A stretch of DNA of 64,000 bases from an uncultured Flavobacteriaceae bacterium (GCA_937959395.1 CALGLR010000055.1:9603-73602), one strand, 5' to 3'; positions 7,215 through 60,975 are shown, counted from the first letter of the stretch. Notes: generated by a model not told the origin, from the letters alone. Made by a program: numbers and translations.

Positions 7215-7948
7215 TGGCCTTATTTAATAAAACATCTAACCCAGCTTTTTCACGATACTTCTGGGAACATTCTAATACTCGCGATAATAAAATGACTGTT
7301 AAAGGCATTTTATTAAAATCATTACTTTCTATTTTTCTCATTATATGCATTATTAGTTTTTTATGGGACATGCATAGTAAAGGGGTTAATCTTAAATGGT
7401 ATGGCCTTGGAGGTATGATTAGCGCTATTATAATAAGCATTGTAATATCTGTAAGACAGCAATGGGCCTATTTTTTAGTTCCGCTTTATGCTATAGCTAA
7501 AGGTTTTTTTCTAGGTAGTTTTACGGCCTACGTTCACGATACGTTTCCAAACATGCCTTATCAAGCCATTGGAGTTACTGTTATTACTTTTTTTGTCGTT
7601 TTAATACTTTATCAAACGCGTATAATTGTAGTAACAAAAAAACTTAGAAGCGTTATTATTACTGCTTGCGCTAGTATTTTTATAGTTTATATTATTTCTT
7701 GGATTTTAAGCATATTCGGGATTAAATCTTTTATATGGGGAACCTCATGGATAGCTATAGGTTTTAATGTTGTTGCAGCTATTTTTGCAGCCTTAGCTTT
7801 ATTATTGGATTTTGATTTTATAGAACGCTATAAGAATAAAGCCTCTAAAGACAAAGAATGGCTAGCCACATGGGGATTACTAGTAACTATTATTTGGTTG
7901 TATATTGAAATTTTAAGACTGATGCGCAAATTTGCAATTCGTTTTTAA
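7214..7948 (+). CDS. Bax inhibitor-1/YccA family membrane protein
   Basis: GTG start, N-terminal FNKTSNPAFS motif, then about 7 TM helices and a charged C-terminus. Confidence 0.6.
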   Translation: MALFNKTSNPAFSRYFWEHSNTRDNKMTVKGILLKSLLSIFLIICIISFLWDMHSKGVNLKWYGLGGMISAIIISIVISVRQQWAYFLVPLYAIAKGFFLGSFTAYVHDTFPNMPYQAIGVTVITFFVVLILYQTRIIVVTKKLRSVIITACASIFIVYIISWILSIFGIKSFIWGTSWIAIGFNVVAAIFAALALLLDFDFIERYKNKASKDKEWLATWGLLVTIIWLYIEILRLMRKFAIRF

Positions 7949-8797: not shown

Positions 8798-10084
8798 TTA
8801 CTCTTTAATCTTAAATTTTATTGGCAAATAATAAGGAACCGTAACCGCTTTTCCTCCATGAGTCCCTGGTATTAATTTTGGAAGCAAACCAACAACTCGT
8901 ATCGCTTCTTCTTCTAAATCAGGATGCGGTGCTCTTGCTTTCAATTCTTTTATTGTACCATCTTCAGAAATTTTGAAAAATACACTTATTTTTAGAACTC
9001 CGGTTAACCCTATATCATCTGCTAATTTTGTATTGAAGTTTTGACCAACTAGTTTATTTATATTCTTTGAAAAACACTTTTTCTGATCTTCTGCGTCTTC
9101 ACAACCTGGAAAAACTGGCACATTCTCTATTATTGAGAAAGCAACCTCATTGGTTTCTACTTTTTTCTCACTATTAAGGCTTTTTTTTTGTTCATACTTC
9201 AAGCTTTCGTCTTGATTTACATCATCACTTTCTTGGACACAAGCGGTATAAAATAGCATACCAACAATTGCTGGAATTAATAATAAATACTTAACTAAAC
9301 TCTGTTGTTTTGATTTTGATTTACTTAACATAATGATTCGTTTTTTGATTAATGATTTTTTAAAAAATGGATTGATAAATGAAATGTTTTTTACTGAAAA
9401 AGCTTGTGCTAATAAACGCTCGTAATAATGTTTCTTATTTTGTGTTATAACCACTTTATCATCGGCGATATACTCATGAAGCGTCGCAATTCTATTTTGA
9501 TAAATATATAGTAAAGGATTAAACCAAAATACGATACGTTGCGCTTCAAAAAATAGTAAATCTAATGAGTGCTTCTCTTTTACATGTATGGTTTCATGTG
9601 CCAATATGCTTTGTCTTTCATCTACATTTAATTGATCTCCAATAAAAACATAACGAAAAAAAGAAAATGCAGCATCACTATTTAATAATGTAATAATTGT
9701 TCCATATTCTGTTTTACTTTTCGGACTCTTAGAAATAAGATGTATTAATTTCACCATCTTTAAAATAAACATAACAAAAGCAAATAGCATTCCTAAATAC
9801 AATACATGTTGCATTGAAAAAGCAAACTCATTTACATTAACTCCGTTATTAGCATCTAATACGTTATTATTAATAACCACTTCCGGCAAACGAATAATAT
9901 ATTCTTGCGGAATTATGTTTTGAAAACTTTCTAATTTAATAAAAGGCAATACTAATGATAGAACACTAGTAATAATTAAATAGGCTCTATTGCAATTAAA
10001 AAACGTTTCTCGCTTTAAAAAAACATCGTAAATCACTATAAATAATAATTGAAATACAATGATTTGAATACTATAATGAATCAT
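8798..10084 (-). CDS. M56 family peptidase / BlaR1-like signal transducer with C-terminal TonB-like domain
   Basis: HETIHVKEKH zinc-metallopeptidase motif (HExxH) in the membrane part. C-terminal domain (VPVFPGC...KAVTVPYYLPIKFK) is typical of TonB C-terminal domains. 4-nt overlap with blaI. Confidence 0.8.
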   Translation of the reverse strand: MIHYSIQIIVFQLLFIVIYDVFLKRETFFNCNRAYLIITSVLSLVLPFIKLESFQNIIPQEYIIRLPEVVINNNVLDANNGVNVNEFAFSMQHVLYLGMLFAFVMFILKMVKLIHLISKSPKSKTEYGTIITLLNSDAAFSFFRYVFIGDQLNVDERQSILAHETIHVKEKHSLDLLFFEAQRIVFWFNPLLYIYQNRIATLHEYIADDKVVITQNKKHYYERLLAQAFSVKNISFINPFFKKSLIKKRIIMLSKSKSKQQSLVKYLLLIPAIVGMLFYTACVQESDDVNQDESLKYEQKKSLNSEKKVETNEVAFSIIENVPVFPGCEDAEDQKKCFSKNINKLVGQNFNTKLADDIGLTGVLKISVFFKISEDGTIKELKARAPHPDLEEEAIRVVGLLPKLIPGTHGGKAVTVPYYLPIKFKIKE

Positions 10085-10446
10085 AACTTTTCATTTTTAT
10101 TAATTTCTTTTAAAACCGATTCTAATTCATCTAAACTGATTTCATTTTTTTTCATAAAAAAGGAAACCATACTTTGAAATGATCCTTGAAAATAGTTATT
10201 TACTAATTTATTTATAGACTGGTTACTGTATTCTGTCTTTTTTAATACAGGGAAATAAATATGTCCCTTTCCTTTTTTTTCATAATCTACAAACCCCTTA
10301 GATTCTAAAATTCTTACTATCGTAGAAACAGTGTTATATGCAGGTTTTGGATCTGGTAATTCCTCTATTATCTGTTTTACATTGGCTTTTTCTAATTGCC
10401 ATAATACTTGCATTATATCTTCTTCTGCCTTTGTTAGTACTTTCAT
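10081..10446 (-). CDS. BlaI/MecI/CopY family transcriptional repressor
   Basis: 121-aa winged-helix protein (LTKAEEDIMQVLW...YNTVSTIVRILESKGFV) overlapping the downstream M56 gene. Confidence 0.85.
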   Translation of the reverse strand: MKVLTKAEEDIMQVLWQLEKANVKQIIEELPDPKPAYNTVSTIVRILESKGFVDYEKKGKGHIYFPVLKKTEYSNQSINKLVNNYFQGSFQSMVSFFMKKNEISLDELESVLKEINKNEKL

Positions 10447-10465
10447 TTTTTTATTTTGTTTTTCA

Positions 10466-10530
10466 AACTAAATAATTAGTTATACGATTCAAATATAACT
10501 ATTTTTTTAGTTTAAACTAATTATTTAGTT
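10466..10530. promoter_or_regulatory. candidate BlaI-type operator palindromes in the blaI promoter region
   Basis: AACTAAATAATTAGTT (10466-10481), TAGTTTAAACTA (10508-10519) and AACTAATTATTTAGTT (10515-10530). All share AACTA/TAGTT half sites. Confidence 0.4.
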
Positions 10531-10585
10531 TTAAAATGTAACATTTTTTTATTTTAAGCGTCTTATATATAAACAATACGATATT

Positions 10586-11083
10586 ATGGATATACTTTTT
10601 GCCTTTATTGGTTTATTATTTATGTGTTTCGGTTTAATTGGCAGCTTTCTGCCCGTTCTTCCTGGTCCAACATTAAGTTGGGTAGGCTTATTAATGCTTT
10701 ATTTAACTAATGCTATTGATAATGATTGGACTTTCCTTGGAATAACATTAATAATTGCCCTTATTGTTTTTGCACTAGATTATATTATTCCTGCTATAGG
10801 TACCAAGAAATTTGGAGGCACAAAAGCAGGTATGATTGGTACCTCTATAGGTTTAGTTATTGGTATTTTAGCTCCTATTCCTGGCGGAATAATTATTGGC
10901 CCTTTCTTTGGCGCTTTACTAGGAGAACTTTATAACAAAGCAGATTCGACGACTGCGTTAAAAGCGGCATTCGGTTCTTTTTTAGGGCTTTTAACTGGAA
11001 CCTTTTTAAAGTTTATTGTCGCAATAATCTATTTTGGATTTTTTATAAAAACGTTTTGGGAGCACAAAGACCTTATTTTTTAA
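10586..11083 (+). CDS. DUF456-like small membrane protein
   Basis: 165 aa, 4 Gly-rich TM helices (GSFLPVLPGP...IPGGIIIGPFFGALLGE). Confidence 0.6.
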   Translation: MDILFAFIGLLFMCFGLIGSFLPVLPGPTLSWVGLLMLYLTNAIDNDWTFLGITLIIALIVFALDYIIPAIGTKKFGGTKAGMIGTSIGLVIGILAPIPGGIIIGPFFGALLGELYNKADSTTALKAAFGSFLGLLTGTFLKFIVAIIYFGFFIKTFWEHKDLIF

Positions 11084-11341
11084 TATAAACACATCTCTTT
11101 TATCCTTTAATAATACCAAATGAATTTCAAAAGTCATTGTTTTAAATTTGAATTATTTTTTATTTACATGAAATAGAAATCGTAAGATTCATAAAATCAT
11201 TAATTTAAAATATAGAATCGTAAACTAAAATATAAGCACAGCATTAGTTACGGTTCTATTTTCTACTGAAATATGAATGAAAAAGAAACCTATTTAACCA
11301 ATAATTTTGATGTTCATTTGGTATAACCATCAAAAAACTGT

Positions 11342-11470
11342 AAAAAGAAACCCTATGTTTTCGAGAGAAAACATAGGGTTATTGTGTAAATGTGCTATTA
11401 CCAACTAATCCCCATTAGTGAGTAACCTAATTTGATTGTTCATCTAATTTACAAAAAATAATAGTTGCTT
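11342..11470 (-). ncRNA. candidate sRNA, copy A (5-prime end approximate)
   Basis: Repeat unit ending in a 14-bp stem (11349-11380) plus U-run on the minus strand, with a 28-nt invariant block next to the terminator. Conserved CTTAGTTTATGTAAA promoter-like box upstream. Confidence 0.4.
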
Positions 11471-11491
11471 TTACATAAACTAAGCGCTCAC

Positions 11492-11511
11492 ATTACGGTT
11501 TCTCCCGTAAT
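11492..11511. promoter_or_regulatory. inverted repeat ATTACGG-N6-CCGTAAT upstream of sRNA copy A
   Basis: Read directly. Same position relative to each repeat copy. Confidence 0.3.
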
Positions 11512-11537
11512 TATTTAATTAATAATCAGAAAACTAC

Positions 11538-11668
11538 AAAAAAGAGGAAACCCCATGTTTTCGAGAGAAAACATAGGGTTATTGTGTAAATGTGCTATTA
11601 CCAACTAATCCTCTTAGTAAGTAACCTAATTGATTGTTAATCTAATTTACAACGAATAATGCTTGGTT
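11538..11668 (-). ncRNA. candidate sRNA, copy B (5-prime end approximate)
   Basis: Same unit as copy A. The stem substitution at 11554 keeps pairing (G-U) only in the minus-strand transcript. Confidence 0.4.
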
Positions 11669-11689
11669 TTACATAAACTAAGTGACCGT

Positions 11690-11709
11690 ATTACGGGTTT
11701 TCCCGTAAT
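11690..11709. promoter_or_regulatory. inverted repeat ATTACGGG-N4-CCCGTAAT upstream of sRNA copy B
   Basis: Perfect 8-bp arms, read directly. Confidence 0.3.
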
Positions 11710-11732
11710 TATGATGATTTTCACCTAATAAT

Positions 11733-11892
11733 CTCAGTTCGACATAAAATGTTAGTGATCAAAGACCGTCAATTCAAGTAAATTTTTGCAACACAGCGAA
11801 AAAAAATAGTGTCCAGAATAGGTTTTTGATACGAAAATCACTGTTCTCGATACACTTCTCCTTAAGTCGAAGCACTCGAACTGACGTGATTT
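11733..11892. repeat. MITE-like ~160-bp element (inverted copy of 20572-20732)
   Basis: Contains CAGTTCGA...TCGAGAACAG...CTTAAGTCGAAGCACTCGAACTGACGTGATT. Aligns by eye with the reverse complement of 20572-20732. Confidence 0.6.
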
Positions 11893-12043
11893 AGAGAGCA
11901 ATTCAGAGGTGTAAATTTCTTCTTATTCAGATTATACTTAAATGGATAGTCCCCTATAATCTTACTTAATCCCTTGAGCCGTCATTTGGTACCTGCGTAG
12001 TCGAAGTTAGCATTAAAACAATTCTAATAAACACATAAATTTA

Positions 12044-12172
12044 TAAAAAGAAGAAACCCTATGTTTTCGAGAGAAAACATAGGGTTATTGTGTAAATGTG
12101 CTATTACCAACTAATCCTCTTAGTAAGTAACCTAATTGATTGTTAATCAAATTTACGACGAATATTAAGTGT
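12044..12172 (-). ncRNA. candidate sRNA, copy C (5-prime end approximate)
   Basis: Third copy of the unit, with terminator stem 12055-12086 plus U-run on the minus strand. Confidence 0.4.
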
Positions 12173-12195
12173 ATTTACATAACTAAGCGAGCTCA

Positions 12196-12215
12196 ATTAC
12201 GGGTTTTAACGTAAT
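12196..12215. promoter_or_regulatory. inverted repeat ATTACG-N8-CGTAAT upstream of sRNA copy C
   Basis: Arms are shortened relative to copy B, but the core ATTACG/CGTAAT is retained. Confidence 0.3.
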
Positions 12216-12245
12216 AGTTACTAATAACAACGTTTAGACTCGCAT

Positions 12246-12290
12246 AAAAAAACTGTTAAAAACACAGAAATTAACATTTTGTTAACAGTT
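12246..12290 (-). terminator. intrinsic terminator after the response-regulator gene
   Basis: Minus strand reads ACTGTTAA-(loop)-TTAACAGT followed by a run of 7 T. Lies 17 nt after the RR stop. Confidence 0.6.
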
Positions 12291-12306
12291 GTGATTTGTG
12301 TTTTCT

Positions 12307-13004: not shown

Positions 13005-15044
13005 TTAGTTAGGAACCTGAATGGTTAAGGTCGTTCCTTTGTTTAGTTTCGTATTAATTTTTAATTCGCCTTGTATTTCTTTTACTCTAGCATACATGTT
13101 TTTTAAACCAATGCCCTTTTTTGCTTTTTCTAAATCAAAACCTGCTCCATCATCTTTAATAATGAGTTTAATTTGGTCTTCGATTTGCTCAAAACTAATA
13201 TCTACTCGCGAACCTTTAGCATGCTTATATATATTTTGTAACGATTCTTGTATAATTCTATAACAATGCATCTTTACTTTATTCGTTAAAGACTCCCAAT
13301 TAATATCGTTATTCTCTTCTAAACTGTATTCTAAATTATAAGCACTTGTTTGTTTATCGACTAATGCCTTTACAATATCAAAATAGCCAGAGCTTGTAAC
13401 AAAATCGGTGTTTAATTCGTGTGATACTTTACGAATATCTTGTTCTATAGCTTGCAACTCTTCTATATAATTACCTCGTGTTTCTATCGCTTCATCTGTT
13501 TTACTAAAGTTTAAGCTATCTAAGCTTAGACGCACTCCAAACAAACGCCCAAGAACACCATCATGCAACTCTTGCGATATTTGTTTCTTCTCCTGCGCTC
13601 TACCCTGGTCTACCTTTTCTTGTTGTGATAGCATAAGGTTGTAGATCTCTTCGTTAAATTCTTGTTGTTTTTGAGCCAATTCTAACTCTTTATTTTTCTC
13701 TCGCTGTGTTTTGATAATATACAATAAAAATAATGTAATTGCTAATATCCCCGTAACCAAGAGTAACCACAAACGTTGCTTAGAAATTTGTTGGTTCTCT
13801 TCTTTTACTTCTATATTTTCTAGTTTTACTTCTTCGGTCTCATATTCTATACGTGCAAATTTATTACGTATAGCGCGTTCTGCTGTTTGAAGACTATCAC
13901 TGAGCTTAATTCTTTCAAGCAAATATTTTTTGGCATCTAAAGCAGGTTCTATTTTTGATTTGAGTTCAAGTGCAGTTATAACAAATTCATTAATATTTAA
14001 TTCTTTACCTAATTGATATGCTTTGTTTGCATAATGTAACGCCGAATCTTTTTCTTCAATATTTTGGAAGTATTCTGAAAAAAATAAACTAGCGGATATT
14101 ATTTCTACATCATTTTTTTTAGAAATGCTTATTGATAAAGATTCTCTATATAAATCTTCAAGTTCATTATTAGAAATATTTCCTTCTAAGAATTTAGTAT
14201 ATGCCAAACTAGATAGTATGATTGCATAAGTAGAAATATCTTTTTCTTTTAACCTTTTTTTTGTTTTTAAAAGATTATTATATCTTTTAATTGCTTCTTT
14301 ATAATTCCCTGATCGTCTATAAACATTAGCAATATTAACTAAAGAATATAAATTTAAATCATCGTTTTCTTTGATTTTTGATGAAAAACTTAAGGCTTTA
14401 TTATGATATTCTAAAGACTTATCATATTGTTTTAGTTTATTTGAAACTATTGCTAGAAGGTTATTAAGTTTCCATAATTTATCATATTTCCAATCGTTAT
14501 CTGGAAGACTCTCAGCAATTTCGATAGCACTAATAGCATTAACTTCTGAACCAATATAATCACGTTCAGTTTCTTGAAGGTCTGCCATATTATAAAGAAT
14601 TGAACACTGATTTTTATGATTCGAAAGATTTTTATATGCTTTTACAGCCTTATAATAGTAAAAATAAGCACTGTCACTTTTAAATTTATCGTGAAAATAA
14701 TATCCTAAAATTTGATTAGCATTTGCAATAGCAGACGAGTCTTTAATTCTTTTAGCCAAAAATAAGTTTTTATGATTTATTGGATATAATGAATCTATTT
14801 TACCATCAATTAGAAACAAGTATGACAGTGTTTTTTGGCTCTTTAAAATAGTAGAATCATTATGCTTTTTAGATAATTTTATTGCCTGGTAAGCAGATTT
14901 ATAACGTTCTTCAATAGTTAGTTTATTATTTTTAGCTTCAGAACGGAACTCAAGAATTTCATTTAATTCTTTTTCCTGAGCAAATACATTTATGCATGCT
15001 AAAAAAACTGTAAGATATAGGGTGATTTTAATCAATGTAAACAA
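13005..15044 (-). CDS. sensor histidine kinase with large extracytoplasmic TPR-like domain (HisKA_3 type)
   Basis: TTG start, signal-like N-terminus, ~390 aa of TPR-like helical repeats, single TM (LWLLLVTGILAITLFLLYII). Then a coiled coil, H-box ELHDGVLGRL and the HATPase motifs DDGAGF and GIGLKNM. Confidence 0.85.
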   Translation of the reverse strand: MFTLIKITLYLTVFLACINVFAQEKELNEILEFRSEAKNNKLTIEERYKSAYQAIKLSKKHNDSTILKSQKTLSYLFLIDGKIDSLYPINHKNLFLAKRIKDSSAIANANQILGYYFHDKFKSDSAYFYYYKAVKAYKNLSNHKNQCSILYNMADLQETERDYIGSEVNAISAIEIAESLPDNDWKYDKLWKLNNLLAIVSNKLKQYDKSLEYHNKALSFSSKIKENDDLNLYSLVNIANVYRRSGNYKEAIKRYNNLLKTKKRLKEKDISTYAIILSSLAYTKFLEGNISNNELEDLYRESLSISISKKNDVEIISASLFFSEYFQNIEEKDSALHYANKAYQLGKELNINEFVITALELKSKIEPALDAKKYLLERIKLSDSLQTAERAIRNKFARIEYETEEVKLENIEVKEENQQISKQRLWLLLVTGILAITLFLLYIIKTQREKNKELELAQKQQEFNEEIYNLMLSQQEKVDQGRAQEKKQISQELHDGVLGRLFGVRLSLDSLNFSKTDEAIETRGNYIEELQAIEQDIRKVSHELNTDFVTSSGYFDIVKALVDKQTSAYNLEYSLEENNDINWESLTNKVKMHCYRIIQESLQNIYKHAKGSRVDISFEQIEDQIKLIIKDDGAGFDLEKAKKGIGLKNMYARVKEIQGELKINTKLNKGTTLTIQVPN

Positions 15045-15259
15045 ATTTCATGTATTCAAAGTAATACATTTTATATAAATCTAGTTTAAAAATCTAAATT
15101 CATCAACTCATATGTATTTTAATTGAAAAATTTTATTTTCAAACTTTTTACAATTGTAAATTAATAGAGTTTCTTCTATGTAAGATTAAAGTTTAATATT
15201 ATGTCTGTTTACAAAAAGAAACATTAGTAAATTTTAAAACTTTGTTGATATTTAATTTT

Positions 15260-15439
15260 CTATCCCTGCCCTGGTACATCTTTTACCTTTATATCTATTA
15301 AAGCTGTCAACTTTACTTTTGGTTGATTGATCTCATGATTTGAAGATTCATTCTCTCCTGTTTCTTCTTTTAACTGGCTTATTCCTGTTAATAATGCAAT
15401 CGCAAAAATGGCTAGTACTGTAATTTTTAATGTTTTCAT
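15260..15439 (-). CDS. small secreted peptide paralog P1 (59 aa, not in ORF track)
   Basis: Hand translation: MKTLKITVLAIFAIALLTGISQLKEETGENESSNHEINQPKVKLTALIDIKVKDVPGQG. Confidence 0.6.
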   Translation of the reverse strand: MKTLKITVLAIFAIALLTGISQLKEETGENESSNHEINQPKVKLTALIDIKVKDVPGQG

Positions 15440-15472
15440 AATGTTTTATTTTTGTGTTATTCAATCAATTTT

Positions 15473-15652
15473 CTATCCCTGTCCTGGCACATCTTTCACC
15501 TTTATATCTATTAAAGCTGTCAACTTTACTTTTGGTTGATTGATCTCATGATTTGAAGATTCATTCTCTCCTGTTTCTTCTTTTAACTGGCTTACTCCTG
15601 TTAATAATGCAATCGCAAAAATGGCTAATACTGTAATTTTTAATGTTTTCAT
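15473..15652 (-). CDS. small secreted peptide paralog P2 (59 aa, not in ORF track)
   Basis: MKTLKITVLAIFAIALLTGVSQLKEETGENESSNHEINQPKVKLTALIDIKVKDVPGQG. Differs from P1 by one residue plus synonymous changes. Confidence 0.6.
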   Translation of the reverse strand: MKTLKITVLAIFAIALLTGVSQLKEETGENESSNHEINQPKVKLTALIDIKVKDVPGQG

Positions 15653-15685
15653 AATGTTTTGTTTTTGTGTTATTTAATCAATTTT

Positions 15686-15865
15686 CTATCCCTGTCCTGG
15701 CACATCTTTTACCTTTATATCTATTAAAGCTGTCAACTTTACTTTAGGCTGATTGATCTCATAATTCGAAGATTCCTTTGCTCCTGTTTCTTCTTTTAAC
15801 CGGCTTACTCCTGTTAATAATGCAATCGCAAAAATGGCTAATACTGTAATTTTTAATATTTTCAT
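15686..15865 (-). CDS. small secreted peptide paralog P3 (59 aa, not in ORF track)
   Basis: MKILKITVLAIFAIALLTGVSRLKEETGAKESSNYEINQPKVKLTALIDIKVKDVPGQG. Confidence 0.6.
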   Translation of the reverse strand: MKILKITVLAIFAIALLTGVSRLKEETGAKESSNYEINQPKVKLTALIDIKVKDVPGQG

Positions 15866-15897
15866 AATGTTTTGTTTTTGTTATTATAATTAATTTT

Positions 15898-16080
15898 CTA
15901 TCCCTGTCCTGGCACATCTTTTACCTTTATATCTATTAAAGCTGTCAACTTTATTTTCGGCTGGTTTACCTCATGATTTGAAGATTCATTCGTCCCAGTT
16001 TCAGTCTCTTTTAACTGGCTTACTCCTGTTAATAATGCAATCGCAAAAATGGCTAGTACTGTAATTTTTACTGTTTTCAT
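15898..16080 (-). CDS. small secreted peptide paralog P4 (60 aa)
   Basis: Track ORF: MKTVKITVLAIFAIALLTGVSQLKETETGTNESSNHEVNQPKIKLTALIDIKVKDVPGQG. Confidence 0.6.
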   Translation of the reverse strand: MKTVKITVLAIFAIALLTGVSQLKETETGTNESSNHEVNQPKIKLTALIDIKVKDVPGQG

Positions 16081-16452
16081 AATGTTTGGTTTTTTGTTAT
16101 TTTAATTAATTTTTTAAATTTTGGTCTCTAAGTGTTATGTCGTAAGTAATATGTATATACTACAATAAGCCGTATGAAATTATCATACAGAGCCCTTGTA
16201 AATCGTAATGTATTTTTTATTAAATAAGTTTAGTGACATTAAGGGATTCAATAAGTACCTCGAAGATATGGGCTATAACTAAAAGTGTATAAAATTACCG
16301 ATAAAGTCTGTTGTTTTTTGGATGAAGTGTTGTTTTACTTCATTTATCGATCGATAATCGATTTTTTATTTTTTTGCACATTCAAAAATAAGACATATCT
16401 ACTTAACTTTCAATAGATTATTACTATACATTAATAAATAAAATCATTGTTT

Positions 16453-16869
16453 TTAGGCCTTCTTTTTGTTTAGCTGTTTAATGTAAAAAGAGGGATAAAT
16501 ACCTACCTGTTTATAAAATGCTTTAGAAAACGACTCTGTATTATTAAAACCAACTTGTTCGGCTATCGCTTTAATGGTATAATTTCGAAGTTTACTATTT
16601 ACTTTTAAAGTTTCAATCGCATAGTTAATACGCAAGTTTTTTATATAGTTAGAATACGAATCGCCTTTGTAATGCTTTATAATTTTAGACAAATAAGACG
16701 AATTGGTTTCTAATTGCTTGGCTAAGCTATTTACCGTTAACTCGTTTAGTAAATATCCTTTTTGTGATTCAAATTGTTTTAGACCTTTTAAAACTGTTTC
16801 AATAATTTCTGGAGAAATATCTAATGAGGTAATTGTTGTTGTTTTCGGTAAAACATATATGACGCAAAA
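16453..16869 (-). pseudogene. AraC-family HTH domain remnant (N-terminally truncated)
   Basis: The open frame extends upstream of the track TTG to a stop at 16870-16872. It encodes ...ISPEIIETVLKGLKQFESQKGYLLNELTVNSLAKQLETNSSYLSKIIKHYKG..., a complete AraC double-HTH. There is no ATG/GTG start and no sensor domain. Confidence 0.5.
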
Positions 16870-50816: not shown

Positions 50817-50970
50817 ATAAAATTAATTTGTGAGGTTCTCGACCTCTATTATTAATAAGTGCGCAAAGATACAATATTTTTTTAATTTTCAAGTTTTTAA
50901 TGACTTAACACCTTAATTATTATTTTTGTTATATTTTTGGAAGGTAAAAATGTAAATGTAAGTAAGATAT

Positions 50971-60901: not shown

Positions 60902-60975
60902 GGTCTGGTAGTTCAGTTGGTTAGAATGTCGCCCTGTCACGGCGAAGGTCGCGGGTTCGAGTCCCGTCCAGACCG
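60902..60975 (+). tRNA. tRNA-Asp (GTC)
   Basis: Hand-folded cloverleaf: acceptor GGTCTGG/CCAGACC, D stem GTTC/GAAT, anticodon stem TCGCC/GGCGA with loop CTGTCAC, T arm GCGGG-TTCGAGT-CCCGT, discriminator G. No encoded CCA. Confidence 0.9.

Follow-up and report, generated by a model that had tools for sequence, protein, structure and literature searches.

Peptide signalling through dedicated receptors is textbook knowledge in Gram-positive bacteria. The receptors of the RRNPP group (Rap, NprR, PlcR, PrgX, Rgg) are cytoplasmic and need the re-import of a 5-10-aa peptide by Opp. In ComCDE- or Agr-type systems, the peptide has a double-glycine leader or depends on AgrB for its processing, and it is sensed by a polytopic HPK10 kinase working with a LytTR regulator. 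Small proteins that act on the periplasmic side of a kinase are also known, such as MgrB and SafA for PhoQ or CpxP for CpxA, and they are often targets of the system themselves. Sensor kinases with periplasmic TPRs are common in Bacteroidota and their ligands are unknown. For example, FimS from Porphyromonas gingivalis has a periplasmic sensor of about 8 TPRs located between membrane segments, and its signal is stated to be unknown (PMC11053733). In the PorA-PorY system, which belongs to the type IX secretion regulon of P. gingivalis, a self-encoded exported protein binds the kinase in the periplasm; basic residues and the last strand of PorA matter for this ligand role (PMC12152298). A kinase with a self-encoded exported ligand is therefore not without precedent in the phylum. 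No description of peptide signalling through dedicated receptors in Bacteroidota was found in the literature searched.

The locus considered here was found in a window of 64,000 nucleotides (the whole stretch of DNA that was analysed) from an uncultured Flavobacteriaceae bacterium. Its minus strand carries four head-to-tail ORFs of 59, 59, 59 and 60 aa, with a period of 213 nt, followed by the genes of a sensor histidine kinase and of a response regulator (Table 1). This locus is the amplified form of a widespread and undescribed three-gene module.

This module resembles the Rap-Phr and other RRNPP systems by the presence of a small gene beside the gene of a receptor with a long TPR superhelix, and by the layout of the small product: Sec-type signal peptide, variable pro-region and conserved, species-specific C-terminal end. 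A Sec-signal pro-peptide encoded beside the receptor gene, as in Rap-Phr, is found in 64 of 69 assessable loci, the signal being recognised by sequence features. However, the bacterium is here Gram-negative and the TPR domain is located in its periplasm, as part of a HisKA_3 kinase; there is no sequence homology, and evidence of processing is absent. A cytoplasmic TPR receptor reached via Opp, as in the RRNPP group, is not found: the sole TPR protein is the membrane kinase, and no opp genes were found in the window or in the related neighbourhoods. Release of a C-terminal fragment has indirect support only, from the absolute constraint on 16 aa within arrays and from the Lys cluster that precedes xP[TS][QN]G. 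In the same way, the module shares with ComCDE, AgrBDCA and PlnABCD the order peptide, histidine kinase, response regulator, as well as strain- or species-specific peptide variants and a plausible autoregulatory promoter. It differs from them by its Sec signal, its soluble periplasmic TPR sensor, its HisKA_3 kinase and its NarL-type regulator; no double-glycine leader, nearby ABC exporter, HPK10 kinase or LytTR regulator was found at the window locus. The module is thus hybrid-like between the Rap-Phr/RRNPP and ComCDE-type designs and is a member of neither.

Like FimS of the FimS/FimR system, the kinase of the window is a Bacteroidota kinase with a periplasmic multi-TPR sensor. Its match to the FimS model NF053520 of NCBIfam (41.3 bits, E=6e-11) is far under the cutoff of 600, so it is not a FimS orthologue. 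Furthermore, FimS controls fimbriae and no partner peptide has been described for it. With regard to the basic residues and last strand that matter in PorA, the peptides of the window family end in a hydrophobic strand and a Lys cluster. However, PorA is a T9SS cargo acting by a C-terminal domain of about 80 aa, PorY has no TPR domain, and there is neither homology nor tandem amplification. MgrB, SafA and CpxP are likewise small exported or membrane-anchored proteins located at the periplasmic side of a kinase, but they are single-copy, usually encoded at a distance from the kinase gene and unrelated in sequence, and their sensors are not TPR domains. Evidence for a modulation of the MgrB, CpxP or PorA type is only circumstantial here (linkage, shared compartment, upstream element recurring after the regulator gene), and there are no binding data.

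Table 1. Features of the window locus (nt positions are counted from the first letter of the window; aa positions refer to the kinase)
Feature	Position	Strand	Evidence
P4 peptide gene, 60 aa	15898..16080	(-)	ORF; P0002 in NCBI/ENA; HMM E=3.9e-30
P3 peptide gene, 59 aa	15686..15865	(-)	ORF; P0003; HMM E=2.8e-29
P2 peptide gene, 59 aa	15473..15652	(-)	ORF; P0001; HMM E=1.3e-31
P1 peptide gene, 59 aa	15260..15439	(-)	ORF; P0004; HMM E=3.4e-31
Tandem repeat array, 213-nt unit x 4.0	15254..16113	(-)	Tandem Repeats Finder
C-terminal 17 codons, example of P1, KLTALIDIKVKDVPGQG	15260..15310	(-)	Alignment; pN=0, pS=0.13 (codons 43-59)
Non-coding region 5' of the array, must hold the promoter	16081..16452	(-)	Sequence; motif survey
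Spacer between P1 and kinase gene	15045..15259	(-)	Hairpin search
Sensor histidine kinase, 679 aa	13005..15044	(-)	Pfam, NCBIfam, sequence, AF2, Foldseek
Kinase signal, cleavable-looking, ends VFA/Q (slash = apparent cleavage point)	aa 1-22	(-)	Sequence
Kinase periplasmic TPR domain, ~400 aa	aa 24-424, nt 13773-14975	(-)	Pfam TPR_12 and others
Kinase TM helix, single	aa 425-444, nt 13713-13772	(-)	Sequence
NarL/LuxR-type response regulator, 225 aa, receiver + GerE helix-turn-helix	12307..12984	(-)	Pfam, NCBIfam

Tandem Repeats Finder describes the array as a single repeat with 93% matches and a score of 1438. Each unit consists of 180-183 nt of coding sequence and an A-rich spacer of 32-33 nt, whose 3' end is AAAACATT, directly before the ATG. 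The four peptides share 92-98% identity, and all end with the same KLTALIDIKVKDVPGQG (positions 43-59). P4 is the first copy of the array and also the most divergent one; P1 is the last copy and the closest to the kinase gene. The peptide HMM did not reveal any fifth copy in the 64-kb window, and searches of the array against Rfam families and of a plasmid collection gave no match. The first-pass annotation, made without database searches, had described these four ORFs with their coordinates, their lengths and a period of about 213 nt, which held exactly. The alignment also confirms its invariant 17-aa C-terminus, with differences only in the N-terminal and middle parts, and its synonymous differences between P1 and P2 (GTA/GTG twice and GGG/GGA). 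Three of the genes had been called invisible to the ORF track; this is explained solely by the 60-aa cutoff of that track, and all four are already called as genes in public NCBI/ENA records (79,933-nt contig).

The same annotation had argued for translation under purifying selection, and this claim held. The pN/pS ratio, obtained by Nei-Gojobori counts over every pair of copies, is 0.20 among the four copies of the window (pS 0.183, pN 0.037) and ranges from 0.18 to 0.45 in five further arrays. Within the window copies, pN and pS reach 0.031 and 0.044 in the signal part and 0.072 and 0.41 in the middle part (see Table 1 for the last 17 codons). When six independent arrays are considered (the window, L003, L004, L005, L022 and L025), the last 16 codons include 23 variable codon columns that are synonymous-only and no replacement, versus 12 synonymous-only and 22 replacement columns in the first 21 codons. 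The C-terminal tail, constant within an array yet different from genome to genome, is the segment under the strongest selection.

It could be objected that the array is a non-coding tandem repeat or that the ORFs are spurious, as the genome is AT-rich, the ORFs are short and experimental evidence of expression is absent. The synonymous-only pattern of the C-terminal codons is incompatible with a non-coding repeat. The low pN/pS across the six arrays, the intact frames in about 110 homologous protein clusters and the absence of any Rfam match also speak against this explanation, which can be considered as practically ruled out. The peptide ORFs are real genes under purifying selection, although no expression data exist.

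A word-indexed protein search with one copy recovered only the four genes of the window, and an exact look-up of P0001 gave no result. By contrast with this, when 1.84 billion representatives were searched exhaustively with a profile, about 15 small proteins of 56-63 aa were recovered with end-to-end matches, and a second round using the alignment of these proteins gave 109 clusters at 90% identity. The homologues, about 110 clusters of 55-63 aa, are named "hypothetical" except for one stray "YceK" label. All those found by profile search come from marine Flavobacteriaceae (Olleya, Lacinutrix, Mesoflavibacter, Psychroserpens); single-copy homologues located 5' of the orthologous kinase in Bizionia and Mangrovimonas widen the range of the family. 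Searches of Pfam, NCBIfam and PDB sequences with several members gave nothing significant. Weak N-terminal matches to lipoprotein, MamI and NVEALA models were rejected as signal-peptide noise. A pattern scan of GTDB genomes with the peptide alignment yielded a single match, in Paraburkholderia (27 residues at 44% identity; the E-value holds relative to the candidates only), which was judged spurious. The full-text literature searched, which does not cover all journals, describes neither this peptide family nor any peptide partner of a TPR kinase.

Conservation within the family is highest at the N-terminus, which consists of MK(S/T)LKIT and a hydrophobic core. In the weighted conservation profile, the start M-K-x-L-K-I-T is nearly invariant and leads into the conserved core. 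Next come a polar linker that varies, a stretch of moderate conservation (N-[KH]-E-[VI]-K-K and V-K-L-T-A) and a C-terminal end made of a Lys cluster, then an invariant Pro and [TSG]-[QN]-G. The N-terminus would be a Sec-type export signal, an inference that rests on sequence features only. The AlphaFold2 model of the peptide (67-sequence alignment) is confident for the N-terminal helix only; the pLDDT of the mature part is 51-66, and this part is therefore without a stable fold of its own. Distant subgroups, which keep the size, position and N-terminus of the family, show a lipobox-like Cys at the end of the signal (FVAC, FTSC; in L049, L059, L065-L071, L076, L079-L081 and L084) and have acidic tails. 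These variants support export, and they suggest that at least some relatives would be tethered to the membrane rather than free; both points are deduced from sequence features. The copies of the window have no Cys and do not meet the lipobox pattern [LVI][ASTVI][GAS]C.

The kinase carries HisKA_3 and HATPase_c domains (Pfam, NCBIfam) in its cytoplasmic part, after the TM helix. As the TPR block is located between the signal peptide and this helix, it is periplasmic. From the peptide gene(s) on, the locus continues with the kinase, the regulator, DUF456 (on the opposite strand), BlaI and a BlaR1/TonB_C protein. The same order is found in Lacinutrix neustonica, Olleya sp. Bg11-27, three Mesoflavibacter contigs, Bizionia and Mangrovimonas, and also in one metagenome relative whose kinase shares 86% identity; the genes located 5' of the peptide gene vary among these loci. 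In all related loci examined, the regulator adjoins the kinase and the peptide gene lies 65-400 nt upstream of the kinase orthologue.

A metagenome search with an alignment of the kinase periplasmic domain alone gave 75 loci (30-49% identity), of which 69 were assessable, that is, had at least 300 nt upstream of the kinase. Scanning with the peptide HMM revealed a family ORF upstream and on the same strand in 64 of these 69 loci (56 at E<1e-3), with a median gap of 150 nt between peptide and kinase genes, and no comparable match elsewhere in the 2.5 kb scanned. The five exceptions have paralogous-looking kinases or a different small signal-peptide ORF upstream. The linkage of the peptide gene to the kinase and regulator genes is near-obligate. 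Furthermore, distances between mature peptides correlate with those between TPR domains (Mantel rho 0.62, p ~5e-4). Peptide and TPR domain diverge together, but this correlation alone cannot separate co-evolution from shared descent. The split kinase gene of L003 (Lacinutrix neustonica) was examined as a pseudogene that would argue against coupling and was rejected as such: many neighbouring genes are also split there, so that indel errors in the assembly are likelier.

These results bear on the other proposals of the first-pass annotation. The co-occurrence with TPR-HisKA_3 kinases that it had offered as a check is strongly positive, and no disrupted peptide ORF, which would have counted as a refutation, was found at orthologous loci. 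Its unrecognised family is still without match in Pfam, NCBIfam or PDB, and its signal-peptide-like N-terminus holds on sequence features only. The resemblance to Phr-type peptides that it had pointed out remains an analogy, the candidate receptor being the periplasmic TPR domain of a membrane kinase and not a cytoplasmic RRNPP protein. As for an exported pro-peptide signal, the lipoprotein-type relatives argue against free diffusion in part of the family.

The model of kinase residues 24-420 (AF2, 66 sequences) has a pLDDT of 91.7 and a pTM of 0.86. It shows about 18 helices (about 9 helix pairs) forming a TPR superhelix, and a long helix leading into the membrane. The TPR fold and the periplasmic topology of the sensor domain are established. 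The best Foldseek matches in the PDB are TPR domains of LGN/Pins (E ~1e-9, TM 0.6-0.77), in structures where extended partner peptides are bound in the inner channel. Other matches include RapF, RapH, a phage Rap with its pheromone and the pLS20 Rap with Phr* (TMq 0.52-0.59). Taken together, the LGN and Rap matches have TM values of 0.5-0.77 and only 14-17% identity. The sensor fold is therefore predicted by the model to be of the peptide-clamping kind, with a ligand that is unproven: because long TPR superhelices resemble each other generically, likeness of fold is not proof of ligand.

The last peptide gene of nearly all related loci is followed, 10-30 nt after its stop codon, by a strong hairpin with a T-run (dG -11 to -27), whose stem sequence varies by locus. 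Between the peptide and kinase genes, most loci have 100-200 nt and a strong terminator. The relatives also carry a heptamer, TCCCTC[AG], at two distances from the ATG, about -75 to -95 and -140 to -165, and TTAAT(T/A)ATCCATT precedes it at both. A third copy lies directly after the regulator gene, and elsewhere in these loci the heptamer hardly occurs. This suggests, from sequence alone, that the peptide gene of most genomes forms a regulated transcription unit of its own, bounded by a terminator. It might be a target of the adjacent regulator, although this is no more than a possible inference. A sigma-70 promoter scan was discarded, as it gave no enrichment over shuffles and is unsuited to Bacteroidota.

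The window departs from this organization. Its 5' region holds no full TCCCTC[AG] element, only a degenerate ATCCCTTAA at about 16239-16247, and the gene 5' of the array is a truncated AraC-type ORF; this 5' flank has therefore probably been rearranged. No strong terminator was found in the spacer between P1 and the kinase gene (best dG -5.7), and the array may possibly be read through into the kinase operon. As the window is devoid of the usual upstream element and terminator, regulation there may differ.

The position of the ORFs, directly upstream of the kinase gene, on the same strand and at a short distance, and the absence of a terminator after P1 in the window could suggest cis-acting leader peptides (upstream ORFs) controlling transcription or translation of the kinase operon. 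This is very doubtful. Amino acids are conserved across genera, including those of the Sec signal and of the C-terminal motif, and lipobox variants exist among the relatives. Furthermore, most loci have the strong terminator and the 100-200 nt mentioned above before the kinase gene, and 4-5 copies would be useless for attenuation.

A second alternative is that the genes encode precursors of RiPPs or bacteriocins (graspetide-like or class II) regulated by the two-component system. Tandem near-identical precursor genes are common for such products, and a variable middle with a conserved end is known in some precursors. However, Pfam scans of the window neighbours revealed none of the expected genes within about 10 kb (modifying enzyme, ATP-grasp, radical SAM, peptidase-ABC exporter, immunity), and such genes are also absent from the called genes of 9 related loci. 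The signal is of Sec type and not a double-glycine or other leader, the single copy is ancestral and the mature peptide of the window is net acidic. This explanation too appears most improbable.

Our best reading is that a Sec-exported peptide acts by its C-terminal tail on the periplasmic TPR domain of the kinase and has been amplified for dosage. Without expression, localisation or binding data, it could as well prove wrong as right. According to this reading, the four genes would be copies of one small exported peptide, the dedicated partner of the downstream kinase. After export, the peptide would be cleaved or anchored by its N-terminal helix, leaving an unstructured mature part of about 38 aa in the periplasm, the compartment of the 400-aa TPR superhelix. 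The C-terminal segment (hydrophobic strand, Lys cluster and x-Pro-[TSG]-[QN]-Gly-COOH) would bind the concave TPR channel, the recognised part being the C-terminal 16-20 residues or so, and would thereby determine the balance between kinase and phosphatase activities towards the NarL-type regulator. The separate unit and the conserved upstream element seen in most genomes would suit a target that this system controls by feedback. In the clade of the window, the 3-5 copies, whose C-terminal part is kept identical, would increase the dosage of a single species-specific peptide. The binding itself, the sense of the regulation, the feedback and the exit of the peptide or of a C-terminal fragment from the cell are inferred only.

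The main competitor is that the peptide is an output. It would be an exported effector (e.g., envelope-associated, adhesive or protective) and the main target of the two-component system, without contact with the kinase, and amplification would simply yield more effector. This remains possible: the gene comes with a promoter element and a terminator of its own, amplification in tandem is a usual mark of selection for the dosage of a product, some relatives are lipoprotein-like and the mature part is unstructured. However, it leaves unexplained why the pairing is kept down to 30-35% kinase identity while the rest of the neighbourhood changes, and why selection focuses on a short species-specific C-terminal tail. 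It also has to face a sensor of the peptide-binding fold type located in the same compartment. An input role is favoured over a mere output on these grounds: a pairing that outlasts deep divergence while none of the other neighbours stays the same, a peptide and a sensor that share a compartment, a sensor fold of the peptide-binding type, and a constraint that falls on a short genome-specific tail.

Several observations go against the ligand reading. Linkage and co-divergence would also be expected from a mere regulated output. Four or five relatives of the kinase have no peptide gene. The TPR likeness to LGN and Rap is generic.

If the peptide is nevertheless a ligand, a ligand or modulator that stays in the periplasm is likelier than a diffusible signal leaving the cell, because a 4-kDa peptide cannot cross the outer membrane unaided and because some relatives are lipoprotein-like. 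A processed C-terminal fragment is still possible, as a Lys cluster precedes the tail. A bolder interpretation, which is conceivable but tentative, is that of a self-made ligand in a pherotype-like (species-specific) autocrine or quorum circuit in Bacteroidota. If true, it would join RRNPP-style peptide recognition by TPRs to a two-component phosphorelay, and other orphan TPR sensor kinases of the phylum, for example those of the FimS type, may also sense endogenous exported peptides.

The ligand reading has the merit of supplying a testable candidate, an exported peptide of about 38 aa, for one family of periplasmic-TPR kinases. As Olleya, Lacinutrix, Mesoflavibacter and Bizionia are cultivable, experiments with synthetic peptides and deletions are straightforward. 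The arrays also provide a natural example of dosage amplification in which the copies are identical only in their functional part.

A single copy is the rule and the ancestral state: it is found in 62 of the 64 metagenome loci, as well as in Bizionia and Mangrovimonas. The copy numbers of metagenome loci are lower bounds; short-read assembly collapses such arrays, and that of L006 contains a run of N. Arrays occur in the Olleya/Lacinutrix/Mesoflavibacter clade and its relatives, with 5 copies each in L003, L004 and L005, 4 copies in the window and in L022, 3 copies each in L007 and L025, and at least 2 copies in L008. Within a genome the copies hardly differ, those of different genomes have diverged, and close Mesoflavibacter contigs carry 5 or 3 copies, of which the first and the last are shared. 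This sameness within genomes and these differences in number between close contigs point to unequal crossing-over and gene conversion.

The peptide gene of the related loci (numbered L, genomes and metagenomes that mostly carry the peptide gene, the kinase and the regulator) is preceded by a conserved cis element, TTAAT(T/A)ATCCATT followed by TCCCTC[AG], which lies at about -85 relative to the peptide-gene ATG, with a second copy at about -150. This distal copy is interrupted by a short hairpin, whose sequence differs. Furthermore, a third copy (TTAATTAATCCCTCA) is found directly 3' of the regulator gene, within a conserved stem, ATCAACA...TTGTTGAT. Two readings of the element are possible: the regulator could use it as its operator, or it could act as a dedicated promoter. 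In the window, it is not intact and is represented only by a degenerate copy.

Almost all loci also have strong terminator-like hairpins (dG -11 to -27, with a T-run after the stem) between the peptide gene and the kinase. In the related loci, they lie 10-30 nt past the last peptide stop, and their stem sequences are different at each locus. The exceptions, where such a hairpin is absent, are the window (15045-15259), L003 (Lacinutrix neustonica), L008 and L025.

On the regulator side of the module, one gene order is conserved across genera, a functional link of these neighbours to the module being no more than possible: regulator, DUF456 gene (on the opposite strand), BlaI-type repressor and a TonB_C-containing BlaR1-like M56 protein. 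In the window, the regulator and DUF456 genes are separated by a 1.2 kb ORF-free spacer harbouring three copies of a repeat of roughly 140-200 nt, each including AACCCTATGTTTTCGAGAGAAAACATAGGGTT, a 32-nt perfect palindrome, as well as a second hairpin, ATTACGGGTTTTCCCGTAAT. This repeat may be a REP or MITE-like element, which it resembles. On the other side of the module, an AraC-family ORF of 79 aa that retains only the C-terminal HTH_18 domain is probably a truncated remnant, in keeping with a rearranged 5' flank of the peptide array.

Coordinates of the features of the window and of the related loci
Feature	Location	Position	Strand
Cis element, examples	L009	7534-7612; 10884	
Cis element, other examples	L011, L028, L029, L041, L058, L079		
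Cis element, degenerate copy	window	16239-16247	
Regulator-DUF456-BlaI-BlaR1-like order	window	8798-11083	
Same order	L004, L005, L009, L011		
ORF-free spacer	window	11084-12306	
Spacer repeat copies	window	11339-11476; 11539-11676; 12045-12182	
AraC-family ORF	window	16453-16692	-
S16-Flavobacteria ribosomal leader (Rfam)	window	50822-50856	-
tRNA (Rfam)	window	60902-60975	+
Run of N	L006	about 7715-7810	
Pattern match	L001	10001-10081	
Lipobox-like subgroup	L049, L059, L061, L065-L071, L076, L079-L081, L084		

The Rfam matches in the window, a ribosomal leader and a tRNA, assign it to Flavobacteriia; no other RNA family of this database was matched there.

In L. neustonica (CP113088.1), the kinase, BlaR1-like and TPR genes are each broken into several ORFs and dnaE is uncalled. 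All five peptide genes are intact. The split genes were considered as pseudogenes, a reading that was rejected, assembly indel errors looking likelier. The peptide array of a TARA metagenome scaffold (L006) contains a run of N. Short-read assembly collapses or breaks arrays, so that the copy numbers obtained from metagenomes are minimal values.

When genomes were scanned for the pattern of the peptide alignment, the sole match was in Paraburkholderia sp. GAS199 (L001), where 27 residues in the hydrophobic and linker region showed 44% identity. It was discounted as a family member, being probably a chance match.

Lastly, a distant subgroup of small upstream ORFs has a signal ending in a lipobox-like Cys (FVAC, FTSC) and an acidic tail ending in GG(x)(I/L/V)D or PGG(Q/N), in place of KK..P[TS]QG. 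From sequence alone, these putative products might be the proposed kinase partner in lipoprotein form.
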